DNA of 11,334 bases from a virus (lineage: Duplodnaviria; Heunggongvirae; Uroviricota; Caudoviricetes), in the IMG/VR virus record IMGVR_UViG_2551306674_000009. One strand, given 5' to 3'. Below the pieces are notes generated by a model, which was given only the letters and a program-made list of their open reading frames with translations, was not told where the DNA came from and made no database searches. Positions 5,970-11,334 of the stretch are shown here, in pieces. The translations under genes were made by a program, and so were the position numbers. Position 1 is the stretch's first letter. Every line of letters starts with the position of its first letter.

Positions 5970-6165
5970 ACCTCTCACTTTTTCGCCTCACTTTTTCAAG
6001 CGTCTCACTTCGTCGCAGTTGGGATTTTCGGTTTTTCTATGTGTGTGTTTCATAAGTATTTTTTTACCCCTCACTTTTGAGGATGTATACAGGTCGAAAA
6101 GTGAGGGAGAGCGGGCTAATTTTGGCCCTCTTTCTATCCCCCTCGCTTTTGCTCCTCACTTTTAT
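5970..6165. repeat. Putative replication origin: CTCACTTTT iterons flanking an AT-rich stretch
   Basis: Copies at 5974-5982, 5987-5995, 6004-6010 (degenerate), 6070-6078, 6097-6105 (inverted), 6142-6150 (degenerate), 6155-6163; AT-rich 6020-6068; immediately 3' of the rep gene. Confidence 0.65.
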
Positions 6166-7562
6166 AGCGGCGCTACATCATCCCCATCGATACGAATAAC
6201 CCCATCTTTTTCCAGCTTGTACAGCCAGCGCCGGAAGTTTTTCATTTCATACCCCAGCTTTTTCATGTCATCACGTAACAGCGGGATCGTGCACTTGTCG
6301 CCGTTCTGTGTGCGTGAACGGATGCACCCCCATAGCGCGGTATGGTTTTCCGTCTTGTTCCCTGCCTCCTCGATGCGCTCCAGTTCAACAGGAGGGCGCG
6401 GATCATCCACCACCACCAGCGACGTGATTAATTCACCGTCAGCGTCGGTAAAAAGCTCCACCACGCGTAAGTCATATGCGGCTTCTTTGAGTTCCTCCGC
6501 GTCCTTCATTTTGGTGCATGAGATAACCAGCGCTTCGCTTCCTGCGTCCTCCCTGCGTATCCGGTATTCAGCATCCAGCGAAGCACGAAATGCACTGGAA
6601 CCGCGCGCGCCTTTCGTCTCATCCTTGCCGGAATGGTGAACCACCAGCACCGTGGCCCCTGTGCGTCGTTTCAGTTCGTCACAACCACGGATAAACGCCC
6701 CCATATCACGGGAATCATTTTCATCATTCCCACCAAAGCAACGCGCCAGCGTATCCAGAATAATCATGCGTACAGGTTTACCCGTTTCCCGCTCCACCTG
6801 ACGGGCAGCGATAACCATTTCATCAACATCAAGCGGGGCAGCCGGAAAGATGGGGCGGTTTACCAGATACAGATTTTTCACCTGCTCATCGTGCACAACC
6901 TCCCAGGCTTTTACACGACGCGGAACACCTATACCGCCTTCACCAACCACATAGAGAACCGCACCATGTGCAACCCTGCGGCCTCCCCACTGGCGACCAG
7001 TGGCAACATGGCACGCCCACGATCCGGCAAGGAATGATTTATAGGACCCGCTAGCCCCGTATATGCTGCATAGCGATACCGCCGGAATAATCCCCTTAAC
7101 CACGTAATCCAGTTGCGTGTCGTATCCGGTAGATCCAACGCTCATCGGTAGCGTGGTTTTTCGCTGGTGGTTTTTTTCTTCCGCCGGCTCTTTCCCGCGC
7201 ACCCGTTCCAGGTATTCGCGCCAGTTCTCCCGCATATGGCTGTGCATCCCTTCGGGGTAATAATTCGCATCAGTTACACCCGCCGCCGCCAGCTTGTGCG
7301 CAATGGCATTAATATTTGATGGCCTGATGTGGCCTGCCTTGTACAGCCGGACACAATAGCGCCCCTCGTCGATGATTCTCAGGTCTGCCAGTTCATCCAG
7401 TTGATCATCAGCCAGCACAACGGGAGGCACATTATCGCCAGCCAGTCGCCCGTCCTGTTCCTGCCACTGTTTCGCATGTGCCCAGGCATCACTACCCGCA
7501 AAAATAATGACTTCGGTCATCTTGTCGTAAGGCTGTTTTTTTAAGTTCGGTGCGCTTTTCAT
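6162..7562 (-). CDS. Replication initiator/helicase, RepA-like (AAA_25-type RecA-fold ATPase)
   Basis: 466 aa; Walker A GASGSYKS, Walker B-like MIILDTLARCF, VLVVHHSGKD; C-terminal winged-helix-like region; ATGA overlap with the upstream ORF. Confidence 0.8.
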   Translation of the reverse strand: MKSAPNLKKQPYDKMTEVIIFAGSDAWAHAKQWQEQDGRLAGDNVPPVVLADDQLDELADLRIIDEGRYCVRLYKAGHIRPSNINAIAHKLAAAGVTDANYYPEGMHSHMRENWREYLERVRGKEPAEEKNHQRKTTLPMSVGSTGYDTQLDYVVKGIIPAVSLCSIYGASGSYKSFLAGSWACHVATGRQWGGRRVAHGAVLYVVGEGGIGVPRRVKAWEVVHDEQVKNLYLVNRPIFPAAPLDVDEMVIAARQVERETGKPVRMIILDTLARCFGGNDENDSRDMGAFIRGCDELKRRTGATVLVVHHSGKDETKGARGSSAFRASLDAEYRIRREDAGSEALVISCTKMKDAEELKEAAYDLRVVELFTDADGELITSLVVVDDPRPPVELERIEEAGNKTENHTALWGCIRSRTQNGDKCTIPLLRDDMKKLGYEMKNFRRWLYKLEKDGVIRIDGDDVAPL

Positions 7563-7858
7563 TTCTTGCCCCTGAATCCGTTAATCATGGTTTTCAGCTT
7601 CTGGATGTTTGCCCGTGCCCTGGCGTTGCTGGTGGGCACGTTATGCGGCGCGGTCTGTACCAGAGAAAAATCACGCCGGAACTGATAAACAGGCATCACG
7701 CAATCATATTCGTAACCTTCACGGCGGTAAGTTACGCACCGTCCCGCCACGCCCTTAATCATTACCGTGCCGCCGTACTGGTCGCGGTAAATATCACCGC
7801 GCGTAAATTTAGGGTTAGTGTTGCCACTGGCAGTTAAGCCAGAATATTTAAGTTTCAT
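7559..7858 (-). CDS. Hypothetical protein (99 aa)
   Basis: ORF with GGAGA SD, translationally coupled to rep. Confidence 0.5.
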   Translation of the reverse strand: MKLKYSGLTASGNTNPKFTRGDIYRDQYGGTVMIKGVAGRCVTYRREGYEYDCVMPVYQFRRDFSLVQTAPHNVPTSNARARANIQKLKTMINGFRGKK

Positions 7859-7863
7859 TATTT

Positions 7864-8097
7864 TTATTCTCCGGTGTGCTGTTCGTTATATCTGTCGTGC
7901 AATAAGTCTATTTCTTGCAGTTCCATTATTACAGGCTCAAGAAGCGTTATTAATGCCGTGGCAATTCTTGATTTTTGTTTGTCGCGTTCATTGTCGCCAA
8001 GTGTTTCAAGCCATATGCGTAATATTTCCATCATGCTTTCACTGTGAGAAAGTGCAAGAAATGCGCGGTCTATTGTTTCGAGGTAAATATCACGCAT
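7864..8097 (-). CDS. Hypothetical protein (77 aa)
   Basis: ATG start with GAGGA SD; operon context. Confidence 0.5.
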   Translation of the reverse strand: MRDIYLETIDRAFLALSHSESMMEILRIWLETLGDNERDKQKSRIATALITLLEPVIMELQEIDLLHDRYNEQHTGE

Positions 8098-8335
8098 GGC
8101 TTACATCCTCAGGAAATTTTCTTCTGTAACGCGCCTCTGCCACATATTCCGCATAATCGGCGGCGATATTCAGTACATCAAGCCCCGTTGATTTATATTC
8201 TCTCGTGGAAAGTAAGAAAAAAGCCGCTCTAATAAGTTCTGGCATTGACGAAAGCGCATCAGCCGCATCATCAGGAACGCCGGAAAATTCCTGTTTCAGG
8301 GAATTAAAACGATCATCACGCATAACCCCCCCCAT
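8090..8335 (-). CDS. Hypothetical protein (~81 aa)
   Basis: First ATG at 8335; a G8 tract lies at the junction with the upstream gene; overlaps the next start by 8 nt. Confidence 0.45.
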   Translation of the reverse strand: MGGVMRDDRFNSLKQEFSGVPDDAADALSSMPELIRAAFFLLSTREYKSTGLDVLNIAADYAEYVAEARYRRKFPEDVSHA

Positions 8336-8555
8336 TTTCACAATCAGCAATCAGGATAGCTTTGGCCTCATTCAGAGCCATATCAGCACTAAGTTGCATA
8401 ACCGCCAGCGAATGAGGAACGAAAGCCCCGGCATATTCTGTTTCACTGGTGGCGTGCTTATGCGCCCTGTCAGCAATAACAGAAATATCAATAAGCGCGT
8501 GCATCAGCGTAGTGAGCGCGGCGGCGGTTGCGTCCGGTGTGGTTTTATTGTGCAT
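8316..8555 (-). CDS. Hypothetical protein (~79 aa)
   Basis: ATG at 8555 with AGGGGGA SD (ORF-track start at 8597 is GTG). Confidence 0.45.
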   Translation of the reverse strand: MHNKTTPDATAAALTTLMHALIDISVIADRAHKHATSETEYAGAFVPHSLAVMQLSADMALNEAKAILIADCENGGGYA

Positions 8556-8745
8556 AGGTTTCCCCCTGGCGAATACGGGCGGCGAATACAGCAACACAAC
8601 CTGACGGGCAACGGTTACGCGCTTCGCGTTCCGTCCAGGCGGTTACGTGGATGATTTGAGATTCTCCGGCACTCAGTGCCAGAAAACGCCACACAAAGGC
8701 CGTTTGTGTGTGTACAAGGTGTGGGGTATGATTTACGGCAACCAT
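8545..8745 (-). CDS. Hypothetical protein (66 aa), first gene of the replication operon
   Basis: ATG with GAGGAG SD at optimal spacing; preceded by a structured leader and the divergent promoter region. Confidence 0.55.
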   Translation of the reverse strand: MVAVNHTPHLVHTQTAFVWRFLALSAGESQIIHVTAWTEREARNRCPSGCVAVFAARIRQGETYAQ

Positions 8746-8819
8746 AACGGCTCCTCGTTTACGTTGTTGGTTAGAAGCCCGTTGGTGTTCATAGCGCCAG
8801 CGGGCTTTGCTTTTGTGGT

Positions 8820-8880
8820 GTCATTGGTATACATTGTCACCGTAAGGCCATTATTATACTCGAGGTATACAATGTCAACC
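8820..8880. promoter_or_regulatory. Divergent promoter/operator region between the RHH gene and the replication operon
   Basis: Two direct copies of GGTATACAWTGTCA(A)CC (8826-8840, 8864-8879), each overlapping a -35-like hexamer; plus strand TTGTCA-N15-TATACT, minus strand TTGACA-N14-TATAAT. Confidence 0.5.
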
Positions 8881-9048
8881 AATGACAACAAAAAGGAAAG
8901 GTTTTCCGTACAGCTTCGTCTTGATGCTGACTTATTCGAACGCTTAAGCATCGCCATGAAAGAAGATGGCGATGATAACCGCTCAGGATGGATAAAAAGG
9001 CTTTTGCGCCGTGAGTTGGATAAACGCGGCATAGAATCAAAAGAATAA
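8872..9048 (+). CDS. Ribbon-helix-helix (Arc/MetJ/CopG-like) DNA-binding protein, candidate repressor
   Basis: 58 aa: KERFSVQLRLDADLFERLSIAMKEDGDDNRSGWIKRLLRREL fits the beta-alphaA-alphaB RHH pattern; GAGGT SD; divergent from the replication operon. Confidence 0.7.
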   Translation: MSTNDNKKERFSVQLRLDADLFERLSIAMKEDGDDNRSGWIKRLLRRELDKRGIESKE

Positions 9049-9105
9049 TTACTATCAGCGCCGTGGCGTGAGGTACTACGGCGCATTGCTTTACAGGGCA
9101 GTATC

Positions 9106-9333
9106 ATGACCAACAACACACTATTACCAATACAAGACACGCAAACCCAAGATGATGAAATCATCCGGCAAAGGCAGTCAGAAGCCTGCGCCAGAGTTGA
9201 GGAAGAACTAACCAGAACAAAAATACCACCACCAGCGCCGCGCTTAATGCCACCAGAAAAATTTGCCCTTGAAGATTTTGTCGAGAAATACCCACGGCGG
9301 TTAAAAGCCACTAAAAACCGACCGCCTGGCTGA
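9106..9333 (+). CDS. Hypothetical protein (75 aa), possible second gene after the RHH gene
   Basis: ORF only; weak SD; no recognisable family. Confidence 0.25.
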   Translation: MTNNTLLPIQDTQTQDDEIIRQRQSEACARVEEELTRTKIPPPAPRLMPPEKFALEDFVEKYPRRLKATKNRPPG

Positions 9334-9430
9334 TAGCCTTGTCCACCAGCTACGGCGGTGCTAAGATTGAAAGCTGCATAAGTCATGAAAATAAACTCCT
9401 TAGCGGTGCATACGCGCCGCTTCTTTTCTT

Positions 9431-9460
9431 CACGAACAACCGCGAACAAGTACAAACAAA
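9431..9460 (+). repeat. Three tandem 10-bp units (tcacgaacaa / ccgcgaacaa / gtacaaacaa)
   Basis: Same NNACGAACAA motif and 10-bp phasing as 201-240; lies just 3' of alpA. Confidence 0.55.
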
Positions 9461-9491
9461 AACACGGACGGAATTTAAAGAATGAATATTC

Positions 9492-9686
9492 TTAATTGAC
9501 GCGTTCGCGGTTTTTGACCCAGGCGACAACCTCAGACTTAACCCAGCCAACCGAACGACCGCCAAGACTGATACGGGAGGGAAAGCGGCCTTGTTTTTCC
9601 ATCTCGTAACGAGTTGTGCGGCAAACGCCTGTTAGCTCTCTGCATTCTTTTTCGCGGATTACACGATCTTCATTTATTTCGCGCAT
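9492..9686 (-). CDS. alpA: AlpA-family phage transcriptional regulator / excisionase-like protein
   Basis: 64 aa with AlpA-type motif (CRTTRYEMEKQGRFPSRISLGGRSVGWVKSEVVAWV); adjacent to and co-oriented with the integrase. Confidence 0.75.
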   Translation of the reverse strand: MREINEDRVIREKECRELTGVCRTTRYEMEKQGRFPSRISLGGRSVGWVKSEVVAWVKNRERVN

Positions 9687-10020
9687 AAAAAGCCCTACAT
9701 AAAATTACGTATAGAAATTTTTGTTTCGCTGTGGATATACGGAAAGAGATTACTTCTTAGCTTTTCTTACCTCTTAAATTGAAGGCGTAACCTTGCCAAA
9801 AGCTATGCTCGCCAAGGTTCGCAAGGGTTCGTTGTTGTTCATAAAATCGTTGCACACCAGGAAAGACAATTCAACATTAAAATTCCCTCTACAGTGAGGA
9901 ATAATTAAAAAAACAAATTAAAACAGTCACATAAAAGCATACACATTGAAATAAAGGAAAATTTTAAAACTCAAGTAGACAATCGCTGTTTTCAAATTTT
10001 TTCAATACTTGACACATATA

Positions 10021-10054
10021 AATCGTCGATATTTGCCGATATTCGACGATTTAT
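10021..10054. promoter_or_regulatory. Inverted repeat AAATCGTCGATAT-N6-ATATTCGACGATTT next to a TTGACA hexamer
   Basis: Near-perfect 13-bp arms in the int-alpA intergenic region; candidate operator. Confidence 0.3.
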
Positions 10055-10095: not shown

Positions 10096-11334
10096 TCAAG
10101 AATTTTGAGAGTAAATTCGCGGGGTCATAACAACGATTTTTTCATCATTGTTCTGGAGAAGCTCGAGACGCTCAACCCATAGATTAAGAGCGTCACGTTT
10201 TGCATCGAGATAACGGGAGTGATTATAGACTCGTTGCATTCCTGGCAACTGGTGCGCGGTTAGCTGCTCCACTACATGAGGATCCACGCCTAAATCGTTC
10301 AGCATCGTTGTAAACGTGTGCCGGATGTCGTGCAACGTCCAGGGGGCTTGATTAATACGTCTGTGTGCCGTTCTTCCGTACTCTGATACGGATGATTGCC
10401 CTTTCAGTTCTCCGAGCAATAATCCCGTGTGCCTGTTCTGCTCCACCAGCTTCGTTACGAACGGCAAGATCGCTTCCGGTATTGGCCTGAATATTGCTAC
10501 CTTCGTTTTGCTGTGTTCTTTCGGCACGGTCCAGAGCATTTCTTTAAAATCCCATTCCTGGAGCTCAGAGCGTCTTAGCTCAGTGGTACGACATCCGAAG
10601 ACAATCAGGAGGCGAATCAGGGCGCTGTAGTACGGTGGGTAAATTTTTTCATCCAGGGCGCGGAGTAATTCCCCAAGCTCCTTGTTTGTTAGTACGCGCT
10701 CGCTTATTTCTGCTTTTTTCCCAACATCACCTACAACCATATCATCTAGAACGTTGGTAATTGCGTAGCGTCGTTTGCGGCAGTACTTAAGCGCCTGCTT
10801 GCATACCTGTAACAAAAATCCTGCTGATACCGGATTACGCTTAGCAAGCTGATCAAAACAGGTCAGCCAGTGGCGTAGCTCGCATTTTTCCAGCGGCATA
10901 GCACCAATCTGGCTGATTATGTGTGTATTGATCCGGCTCTTCAGAGATTCGTAGTCTGTGCGCTTTTCCTTCGCGTACGATTCAAGCCAGTAAGTGAGCG
11001 CTTCCTTAACCGTAACAGGTGATAACGCTTCCTGTACGGTGTGATTAAGCTCATGGCGTGGATTTTTCCCCTCAGCAAGCCAGGCGCGACACTGCGCCGC
11101 TTTTTCCCTGGCTGCTTTCAGGCTCAAATCAGGATAATTTCCCAGCCTCAGACGTTCAGGGGATACCTTCCTGCCTGTTCCGGCCCTGTAAGTGAAATAC
11201 CAGGTTAACAGGCCATTGGTTGAATGCCTTACGCTAAGGTTGCCACCATCATTAAAAAAGGTGTTTTTTGTGGTTGGTGATCCGCTTAATTTTCGTAAAA
11301 GAGTGTCGCTAAGTCTATGAATTGCCCTGCTCAT
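10096..11334 (-). CDS. int: Tyrosine integrase, P4-type
   Basis: 412 aa; N-terminal arm-binding-like region, C-terminal catalytic residues (HDIRHTF ... VYNHSRY). Start codon is at the last bases of the window, so the true 5' end could lie beyond the edge. Confidence 0.85.
   Translation of the reverse strand: MSRAIHRLSDTLLRKLSGSPTTKNTFFNDGGNLSVRHSTNGLLTWYFTYRAGTGRKVSPERLRLGNYPDLSLKAAREKAAQCRAWLAEGKNPRHELNHTVQEALSPVTVKEALTYWLESYAKEKRTDYESLKSRINTHIISQIGAMPLEKCELRHWLTCFDQLAKRNPVSAGFLLQVCKQALKYCRKRRYAITNVLDDMVVGDVGKKAEISERVLTNKELGELLRALDEKIYPPYYSALIRLLIVFGCRTTELRRSELQEWDFKEMLWTVPKEHSKTKVAIFRPIPEAILPFVTKLVEQNRHTGLLLGELKGQSSVSEYGRTAHRRINQAPWTLHDIRHTFTTMLNDLGVDPHVVEQLTAHQLPGMQRVYNHSRYLDAKRDALNLWVERLELLQNNDEKIVVMTPRIYSQNS

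Follow-up and report, generated by a model that had tools for sequence, protein, structure and literature searches.

The DNA analyzed here, IMG/VR virus record IMGVR_UViG_2551306674_000009, is a stretch of 11,334 nt (the window; positions count from its first letter). It is a Gram-negative phage-inducible chromosomal island (PICI) of the EcCICFT073 type, in which the conserved gene order runs from int and alpA through the replication module to a late module with capsid-related genes. We focus on the region between alpA and the replication operon, where a gene for a 58-residue ribbon-helix-helix (RHH)-like protein stands opposite a leftward operon headed by an Icd-like gene, and where two promoters, a pair of operator-like repeats and a hairpin crowd the sequence around their start codons (Table 1). 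All results are computational, and the start sites, the RNA, the operators and their binding are predictions from the sequence. The RHH gene is divergent from the operon, which ends with a gene for a RepA-like helicase, and convergent with alpA; both orientations agree with a preliminary description of the region.

Table 1. Features of the control region and of the genes around it
Feature	Position	Strand	Detail or basis
P_L, leftward operon promoter	8850-8878	-	TTGACA (8878-8873)-17-AATAAT (8855-8850); 11/12 consensus
P_R, candidate RHH promoter	8828-8857	+	TATACA-18-TATTAT; 9/12 consensus
Left operator-like element	8819-8841	.	TGTCATTGGTATACATTGTCACC; repeat copy 1 (8826-8839), CATTG at 8822, 8832
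Right operator-like element	8864-8887	.	GGTATACAATGTCAACCAATGACA; repeat copy 2 (8864-8877), CAATG at 8870, 8880
Shine-Dalgarno sequence of RHH gene	8862-8865	+	GAGG, 6 nt before RHH ATG; read from sequence
RHH-like protein gene	8872-9048	+	58 aa, stop included; ORF list
-10 hexamer of putative antisense-RNA promoter	8727-8732	+	TATGAT, in Icd-like codons 5-7; TAnnnT conserved
Predicted cis-antisense RNA	~8739-8816	+	~78 nt; fold, covariation, strand asymmetry
Hairpin read as intrinsic terminator of antisense RNA	8774-8808, T-tract 8806-8816	+ only	16 pairs then GCTTTTGTGG
Leftward operon, Icd-like gene to helicase gene	6162-8745	-	ORFs, profile matches
Icd-like gene, head of leftward operon	8545-8745	-	66 aa; NCBIfam NF033153 E 7e-18
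RepA-like AAA_25 helicase, last gene of leftward operon	6162-7562	-	466 aa
Second gene of rightward unit, conserved small open reading frame (ORF)	9106-9333	+	75 aa; homologues in other islands
Terminator-like hairpin ending rightward unit, before alpA	9402-9421	+ only	8 pairs then TCTTTTCTTC
alpA, convergent with RHH unit	9492-9686	-	Pfam Phage_AlpA E 4.7e-16
int	10096-11334	-	gene content of window

Divergent promoters and operator-like repeats

P_L is the sole near-consensus promoter in 8500-9800, with an inferred start at ~8843 and a -35 hexamer that overlaps the RHH start codon. A promoter occupies the same position in all 18 family loci, matching the consensus at 9-11 of 12 positions and carrying a perfect TTGACA over the RHH start codon. 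The candidate promoter of the RHH gene, P_R, has a predicted start at ~8864, and its equivalents in relatives are weak (7-9 of 12 positions); an alternative candidate lies further upstream, with a -10 hexamer TACATT at 8830-8835. Judged by these starts, P_L and P_R diverge, and their -10 regions overlap (8850-8857), an arrangement in which RNA polymerase could engage only one promoter at a time. They had been described as face-to-face and near-consensus; the second attribute holds for P_L but not for P_R, and the first gives way to the divergent layout. Ahead of the RHH start codon, relatives have GAG or GGAG in the place of the GAGG found here.

The promoters are overlaid by a 14-nt direct repeat, GGTATACATTGTCA (8826-8839) and GGTATACAATGTCA (8864-8877), in which 13 of 14 positions are identical and, as had been pointed out, each copy lies over one -35 element: copy 2 on that of P_L and copy 1 on that of the P_R candidate. 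The quality of this repeat was matched in none of 1000 dinucleotide shuffles of the intergenic region, and the window contains only these two matches at up to 2 mismatches. Both copies are embedded in a 31-nt inverted repeat (8807-8837 and 8869-8899, 81% complementary) and hold four CAWTG pentamers, arranged as two pairs phased 10 bp (8822/8832 and 8870/8880). With respect to P_L, the left operator-like element extends from ~+4 to +24, and it lies over the -35 of the P_R candidate; the right element overlaps the RHH start codon together with the -35 and spacer of P_L. All 23 nt of the left element are invariant in the related loci L028 (92% identical) and L027 (85%), in which the adjacent spacer diverges, and 14 loci representing many genera keep its core, TGGTGTACATTG. 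In the right element, the non-coding half, GGTATACA, is kept in L028 and resembles the corresponding element of the Pasteurella island Pmp8.

The RHH-like protein

The preliminary description assigned the 58-residue protein to the RHH class, and it does look RHH-like: its profile matches are weak but consistent, and its named structural matches, individually not significant, are mostly RHH proteins. Pfam RHH_1 covers positions 2-39 of its 39 model positions at 15.2 bits (E 0.021, cut-off 20.5), the NikR N-terminal domain matches with E 0.0012 but scores far under its cut-off, and the YlcI_YnfO_N profile (NF041551) scores 17.2 bits (E 0.0039, cut-off 30). In the AlphaFold2 monomer, computed with 26 homologues (predicted local distance difference test score 78), helices at residues 19-32 and 37-51 follow an extended N-terminus, and the named PDB entries matched by Foldseek are mostly RHH proteins (NikR, MazE9, Arc, CopG, ORF56 and TacA, all at E of at least 0.26). 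The NikR match has 39% identity over 38 residues with a root-mean-square deviation of 1.1 Å; a profile search of PDB with the protein sequence gave nothing significant (NikR, E 0.92). Within the family, Gln14 and Arg16 of the putative strand never vary, and by eye both are retained in the Pasteurella homologue. RHH dimers, which form an antiparallel two-stranded sheet, bind operator subsites spaced by about one helical turn; on the DNA side, the window has the CAWTG pairs phased 10 bp. Pairwise BLASTP against the YlcI/YnfO protein of CFT073 gave a non-significant E of 0.097. By score the 58-residue protein is not a YlcI/YnfO member; it is a positional analogue of the true members found in L001 and EcCICFT073.

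In Enterobacterales the family comprises ~96 clusters at 90% identity, all unnamed, from genera that include Escherichia, Salmonella, Klebsiella, Yersinia, Serratia, Morganella, Pectobacterium and Xenorhabdus. The NCBI Prokaryotic Genome Annotation Pipeline (PGAP) calls the gene in related E. coli islands as a "hypothetical protein" (WP_157774576.1). A profile search of a 50%-identity library (1.84 billion representatives) retrieved 15 clusters at E <= 0.001, which indicates a narrow family, and gave no link to a characterized one; PHROGs contains no match. Relative to the E. coli copy in L027 (85% identical), 23 of 23 nucleotide differences are synonymous third-position changes, a sign of strong purifying selection on the frame; substitutions across genera likewise favor the plus (RHH) frame over the open antisense frame.

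That antisense frame is a 240-aa ORF (8733-9455, minus strand) running opposite both the RHH gene and the 75-aa ORF. We rejected it as a real gene: cross-genus substitutions fit the plus frame better, the ORF shares wobble positions with the RHH frame, and the antisense frame has a stop in L017. In strain LH50-c (L027, 1208-2830), PGAP joins the equivalent ORF and the Icd-like gene into one product of 540 aa and leaves the RHH gene without annotation; the 540-aa "Icd-like" call looks like an artefact of the shared wobble positions.

A predicted cis-antisense RNA

The hairpin (arms 8775-8785 and 8797-8807; 16 pairs over 8774-8808 with G-T pairs allowed) falls inside the ~98-nt leader predicted from P_L, and to this extent its earlier description as a leader hairpin of the replication operon stands. 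It is better read on the plus strand, most likely as the intrinsic terminator of a ~78-nt cis-antisense RNA whose target would be the Icd-like gene, at its leader, Shine-Dalgarno sequence and start. This reading relies on a T-tract found on the plus strand only, on covariation, on strand-specific G-U pairs, on a conserved -10 hexamer and on the ordinary fold of the minus strand.

Complementarity of the predicted RNA to the Icd-like gene extends over the 5' untranslated region, the Shine-Dalgarno sequence and the first codons. The RNA folds with -35 kcal/mol (z score -4.3) and presents an anti-Shine-Dalgarno sequence, CUCCUC (8751-8756), in an apical loop; the minus-strand leader has an unremarkable fold (z score -1.65). 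Across 14 aligned loci, the consensus fold combines a 5-bp stem-loop and a GC-rich terminator stem with an outer helix, AGCCAU/GUGGUU, which contains the Icd-like start codon in complementary form. Ten of its 21 pairs show compensatory changes and 95% of cells are paired; in the terminator hairpin, six pairs have compensatory changes among relatives. On four of five structure measures the observed value was reached in 0 of 500 shuffles, and sliding partners gave 27-51% pairing. G-U pairs give the structure strand-specificity: the outer helix pairs in 81 of 84 cells on the plus strand vs 54 of 84 on the minus strand and the terminator in 131 vs 106 of 140, the 5-bp stem-loop pairing equally on both (67 of 69 cells each). 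At the position of the putative -10 hexamer, TAnnnT is present in 21 of 21 loci, with a TGn extension in 10 of these 21, and its invariant T and A fall at Icd-like codon positions at which the residues vary (His/Gly/Ser, then Thr/Ile/Asn).

A covariance model built from the 14 loci matches the window at 8733-8820 on the plus strand. In a 324-kb search it also finds, on the plus strand only, L001, L002, L003 (twice), L016, L018, L021, L024, L027, L028, EcCICFT073 and Pasteurella Pmp8, that is, every related island outside the building set. It gave no other match at E <= 1 in this search, and with filters off only weak matches elsewhere (at most 12.4 bits, E of at least 0.21). Rfam has no family for the hairpin or the RNA, and its C4 and isrK models do not match (window at E <= 1; 8500-9500 at E <= 10). 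In silico, the element has a predicted promoter and an intrinsic terminator of its own, and its structure is conserved on the antisense strand, as is generic for cis-antisense RNAs. It is found in every island whatever the RHH allele, and also where no RHH gene lies downstream (second copy in L003).

In this island, from E. coli ST130, the two copies (L003, 9594-9681 and 10295-10383) precede different leftward gene heads, namely an Icd-like gene and a 246-aa gene with an ash-family pseudogene, which suggests that satellites recombine at the antisense-RNA element. On the minus strand, another hairpin, CACACAAACGGCCTTTGTGTG followed by GCGTTTTCTG, resembles a terminator and is found at 8690-8710 within Icd-like codons 12-19; it is present in L001 (9128-9148) and, by eye, unconserved in more distant loci. 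Should the antisense RNA block ribosomes, this hairpin could bring about attenuation coupled to translation.

Regulator alleles and repeats in related islands

A protein search of the phage collection gave Pmp8 only, and a DNA search with 8545-9048 gave no match there. This Pasteurella "phage" is a 15-kb capsid-forming satellite island, whose RHH protein is 44% identical to that of the window. Its leftward promoter (TTGACA-17-TATAGT, 11/12) overlaps the RHH start codon and is accompanied by two 17-nt direct repeats, GGTAATTACCATATAAA and GGTATATACCATGTCAA, 31 bp apart, of which one lies in the -35/spacer region and the other just past the predicted start. EcCICFT073 carries in the slot of the window RHH gene a 59-aa protein of the YlcI/YnfO family (C_RS30120), and here a different repeat, GTGGGCCACACC, is present in two copies, 23 bp apart, on either side of the -10 of a promoter (TTGACG-18-TATAGT, 10/12) aimed at the Icd-like gene. 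L001 has a 101-aa YlcI allele together with two copies of ACTGAATCACA plus two inverted copies.

The AlpA protein of the window is 100% identical to that of L001, and the two islands have different regulators and repeats; L002 and L028 share regulator and repeats with the window, and their AlpA is only 32% identical. From these natural recombinants it follows that the repeats travel with the RHH allele and not with the AlpA allele. The conserved promoter position, the allele-specific repeats and the recombinants support the view that regulator and operator may form a cognate cassette. The earlier suggestion that a repressor be added to the activator logic of AlpA is in keeping with this, in that a recurrent layout with allele-specific repeats fits a repressor/operator pair.

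Cassette content varies in Tenebrionibacter (L016, 5801-6177) and Kosakonia arachidis (L018, 5713-6180), in which two tandem paralogous RHH genes of the same family are placed between the antisense-RNA element and the remainder of the cassette.

A two-layer model and its alternatives

Based on these comparisons, we propose with modest confidence that the region between alpA and the replication operon is a two-layer quiescence module, composed of an RHH repressor with its operators and a cis-antisense RNA. In the first layer, RHH dimers or a dimer of dimers would bind 8819-8841 and 8864-8887 and bracket the overlapping -10 regions, the right element covering the -35 and spacer of P_L and the left element the first ~20 transcribed bases of P_L plus the -35 of the weak P_R. 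Occupancy of both elements would then switch off the operon from the Icd-like gene to the helicase and leave the RHH gene autoregulated. In the second layer, to which the conservation of the element points, a constitutive RNA of ~78 nt, running from the -10 inside the Icd-like gene to the terminator at 8774-8808, would base-pair with the Icd-like mRNA over its leader, Shine-Dalgarno sequence and start codon; translation of leaky transcripts would be blocked, and the transcripts would probably be destabilized or made polar. Our view of induction is speculative: helper-induced AlpA would have to override both layers, either through direct activation or through transcripts that start at the alpA promoter, cross the convergent RHH cassette and enter the operon. 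Read-through from alpA and the transcriptional interference envisaged for it in the preliminary description are pure speculation, and the one fact that bears on them is the terminator-like character of the 9402-9421 hairpin, which is limited to the plus strand.

Several observations weigh against this model. As to the regulator, neither an RHH-superfamily nor a YlcI/YnfO profile of Pfam or NCBIfam reaches its curated cut-off for the 58-residue protein, its N-terminal strand is unformed in the AlphaFold2 monomer, and Foldseek returned zero matches below E 0.001 for the model. As to the sites, the non-coding half of the right element is lost in L027 and most relatives, which weakens the picture of two equal operators; the conserved remainder of this repeat also encodes Met-Ser-Thr and forms the -35 hexamer; and the conserved left element could be a mere core element of the RHH promoter. 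Co-inheritance of repeats and regulator would be expected even without function, since the operator adjoins the RHH gene. A scan of L001 revealed no leftward promoter of at least 9/12 (a by-eye candidate there, TTGACC-17-TAATTT, scores 8/12 and was not used as evidence). The -10 of the antisense RNA lies inside coding sequence whose N-terminal residues are related among loci. Over-expression of AlpA alone induces EcCICFT073 (PMC6092414), so that any repressor present would not be dominant over AlpA. Finally, scans of the window gave no extra operator copies near alpA or int, and any control would therefore be local, confined to the replication operon and the RHH gene itself. The master-repressor layout proposed earlier survives as a layout, which recurs in Enterobacterales and in a Pasteurella island with allele-specific repeats; the term "master repressor" is unproven and overstates what the sequence supports.

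An alternative that we consider unlikely assigns all regulation to the antisense RNA and AlpA, the repeats being promoter elements and coding constraints of two overlapping promoters and the small protein an autoregulated accessory that would work together with the conserved 75-aa ORF and have no effect on the operon. Such a scheme would account for the coincidence of the most conserved bases with the TTGACA -35 and the ATG-TCA-ACC coding sequence and also with a candidate -35 or -10 of the RHH promoter, for the unconserved non-coding half of the right repeat, and for the presence of the antisense RNA in all islands regardless of the RHH allele, including the second L003 copy that no RHH gene follows; it is also compatible with the second small ORF that always accompanies the E. 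coli RHH gene. It does not explain why three unrelated repeat sets, one per regulator allele, occupy the same place around the leftward promoter core, for which promoter hexamers alone are insufficient, nor why the 23-nt left element is invariant though its flanks diverge.

The remaining alternatives concern the hairpin. That it acts in the minus-strand leader, as an mRNA stabilizer or as a processing or protein-binding site, with no separate antisense RNA, seems to us distinctly improbable: the hairpin does lie within the ~98-nt P_L leader, the small stem-loop pairs in 67 of 69 cells on either strand and the conserved plus-strand -10 sits in coding sequence, but the z scores (-1.65 for the leader vs -4.3 for the plus-strand RNA), the G-U bias of the outer helix (81/84 vs 54/84) and terminator (131/140 vs 106/140), the T-tract confined to the plus strand and the -10 motif (TAnnnT in 21/21 loci, TGn in 10/21) all favor a plus-strand transcript. 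We give little credence to the notion that the transcript from ~8739 is an attenuated leader of the RHH mRNA, with read-through of the terminator supplying RHH expression. The weak candidate RHH promoters (7-9/12) would be understandable on these terms, as would the adjacency and co-orientation of antisense RNA and RHH gene in most loci; against it speak the strength of the terminator (16 pairs and a T-tract), the L003 element copy without an RHH gene downstream, the genes that intervene in L016 and L018, and the retention of the antisense module beside unrelated regulator alleles.

Relation to known regulatory systems

The regulatory logic of the two-layer module would be closest to copy control of plasmid pMV158, where, as worked out by del Solar, Espinosa and colleagues, the RHH repressor CopG and the antisense RNA II act together on repB. 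In both, a replication-initiator operon is under a ~45-60-aa RHH repressor at its promoter (putatively so in the window), and a short countertranscript with an intrinsic terminator, in the window a predicted one, also covers the region of the translation start. The differences are that CopG is co-transcribed with repB whereas the window RHH gene is divergent from its operon, that the predicted antisense target is the Icd-like gene heading a long operon, and that similarity to CopG is limited to the fold (Foldseek rank 34, E 3.1), with none in sequence.

A second parallel is the immI region of phage P22, with the RHH repressors Mnt and Arc, divergent overlapping promoters P_ant and P_mnt, and the sar antisense RNA. 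It shares with the model for the window a divergent small RHH repressor, an operator over a strong promoter and over the repressor's own weak promoter, and an antisense RNA of ~70 nt that targets a ribosome-binding site within the operon under repression. The Foldseek matches of the window protein include Arc. Unlike immI, the window has no antirepressor gene or second RHH gene in the repressed operon, the genes under putative control are satellite replication genes, and no sequence homology of the window RHH protein to Mnt or Arc was detected.

Like the Stl and Rpr master repressors of SaPIs and Gram-positive PICIs (PMC6092414), the RHH gene is divergent from the excision/replication operon of a phage satellite, and its product would keep the island quiescent. 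Stl/Rpr proteins are larger helix-turn-helix proteins, encoded in the orientation of int, which control the whole island and are inactivated by binding a helper protein (PMC6092414). The window protein is a 58-aa RHH protein encoded on the strand opposite int and alpA; its gene is not adjacent to int, its predicted sites are confined to its own intergenic region rather than serving whole-island control, and AlpA is known to be needed as an activator.

With P4 CI and P1 C4, the predicted RNA has in common that a small structured RNA heads an early operon of an Enterobacterales satellite, for which immunity is the proposed function. In P1, the first target of C4 is an Icd-type gene. The P4 and P1 RNAs arise by processing of the sense transcript and recognize sites of partial complementarity, in contrast to the cis-antisense countertranscript predicted here. 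The YlcI/YnfO family (NF041551), finally, resembles the window protein in small size, in its RHH-like N-terminal domain and in occupying the same slot in sister islands, including that of C_RS30120, and differs from it in the associated repeats and in the family cut-off, below which the window protein falls. We found no functional study of the YlcI/YnfO family in the searched literature.

Implications for Gram-negative islands

Whether Gram-negative PICIs have a global repressor has been stated to be unclear, and the contrast with the repressor-based islands of Gram-positive bacteria has been termed a mystery (PMC6092414). An early-gene reporter of EcCICFT073 requires AlpA, an activator (PMC6092414). 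The promoter of EcCICFT073 matches the consensus at 10 of 12 positions and, if silent without AlpA, would fit cis-encoded repression. Some Gram-negative PICIs have immunity RNAs of the C4/isrK type (PMC10111431), which represent a different RNA solution. Searches of the PICI literature within our reach, to which most subscription journals did not belong, gave nothing relevant on an RHH regulator, an antisense RNA, YlcI/YnfO or the Icd-like gene. The genes of the cassette are tiny, and we found no discussion of them in the satellite papers searched. In the RefSeq annotation of EcCICFT073 (L026, 10243-11053), the YlcI/YnfO gene, the Icd-like gene and the small downstream ORF carry late-series locus tags (C_RS30120, C_RS30125 and C_RS30800), which suggests that they were added after the original annotation and may explain their absence from PICI papers.

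We tentatively extend the model, as a possibility that falls somewhat short of an even chance, to AlpA-type Gram-negative PICIs at large, including EcCICFT073 and the Pasteurella islands: these would not be activator-only but would carry a modular, hitherto unannotated immunity cassette, in which a small RHH/YlcI-type repressor with allele-specific operators on the promoter of the replication operon is joined by a universal cis-antisense RNA to the Icd-like first gene. If so, (i) the cassette would play the part that Stl plays in Gram-positive islands, (ii) co-resident satellites would fall into immunity or incompatibility groups set by the diversity of its alleles, and (iii) the silence of a near-consensus promoter ahead of a cell-division inhibitor and replication genes would be accounted for. 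The cassette would make the repressor question directly testable in EcCICFT073. Having no Rfam match, the antisense RNA would also add an RNA family, present in about one fifth of complete E. coli genomes as estimated from matches to the surrounding region: parts of 8500-9750 are matched in 1060 of 5426 such genomes, and this region is mosaic, with no complete E. coli record covering 80% of it.

Gene content and further features of the window

The leftward operon is tightly packed and runs from the 66-aa Icd-like gene through ORFs of 93, 86 and 77 aa and a DUF4222 gene to the 466-aa helicase, after which come SSB/PerC-like genes and genes for the major capsid protein, a head decoration protein and the small terminase subunit. 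This gene order is shared with the E. coli islands L001 and L002 and with the CFT073 island between roxA and phoQ, which is EcCICFT073, the prototype Gram-negative PICI. The Icd-like protein belongs to a family annotated as host cell-division inhibitor in NCBI. In PHROGs it matches phrog_1743 and phrog_6196, whose label "transcriptional repressor" conflicts with the NCBI name, along with other entries of unlabelled function. In Pmp8 (L029, 4313-4876), the equivalent first position of the operon is taken by a 187-aa gene annotated as a repressor.

Homologues of the 75-aa ORF also follow the RHH/YlcI gene in L001, L002 and EcCICFT073, irrespective of which RHH allele is present. Those in L002 and EcCICFT073 are 32-35% identical to it and share the pattern MT...SE..A...P..F.L..F..Y; searches of Pfam, NCBIfam and PHROGs gave no family match for this ORF.

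Two sets of repeats lie outside the control region. The heptamer CGAACAA has 9 copies in the window against 2.2 expected, a number reached by 0 of 200 shuffles, and forms clusters at 204-230 (three copies phased 10 bp, near the left end), 512-525 (two inverted copies) and 9433-9449 (two copies 10 bp apart, just past the alpA stop and beside the 9402-9421 hairpin); these may be candidate sites for Int (arm-type) or AlpA. At 10023-10050, between the int stop and the AT-rich region upstream of alpA, an imperfect palindrome coincides with a 10-bp tandem repeat, TCGACGATAT, present in 2.8 copies.

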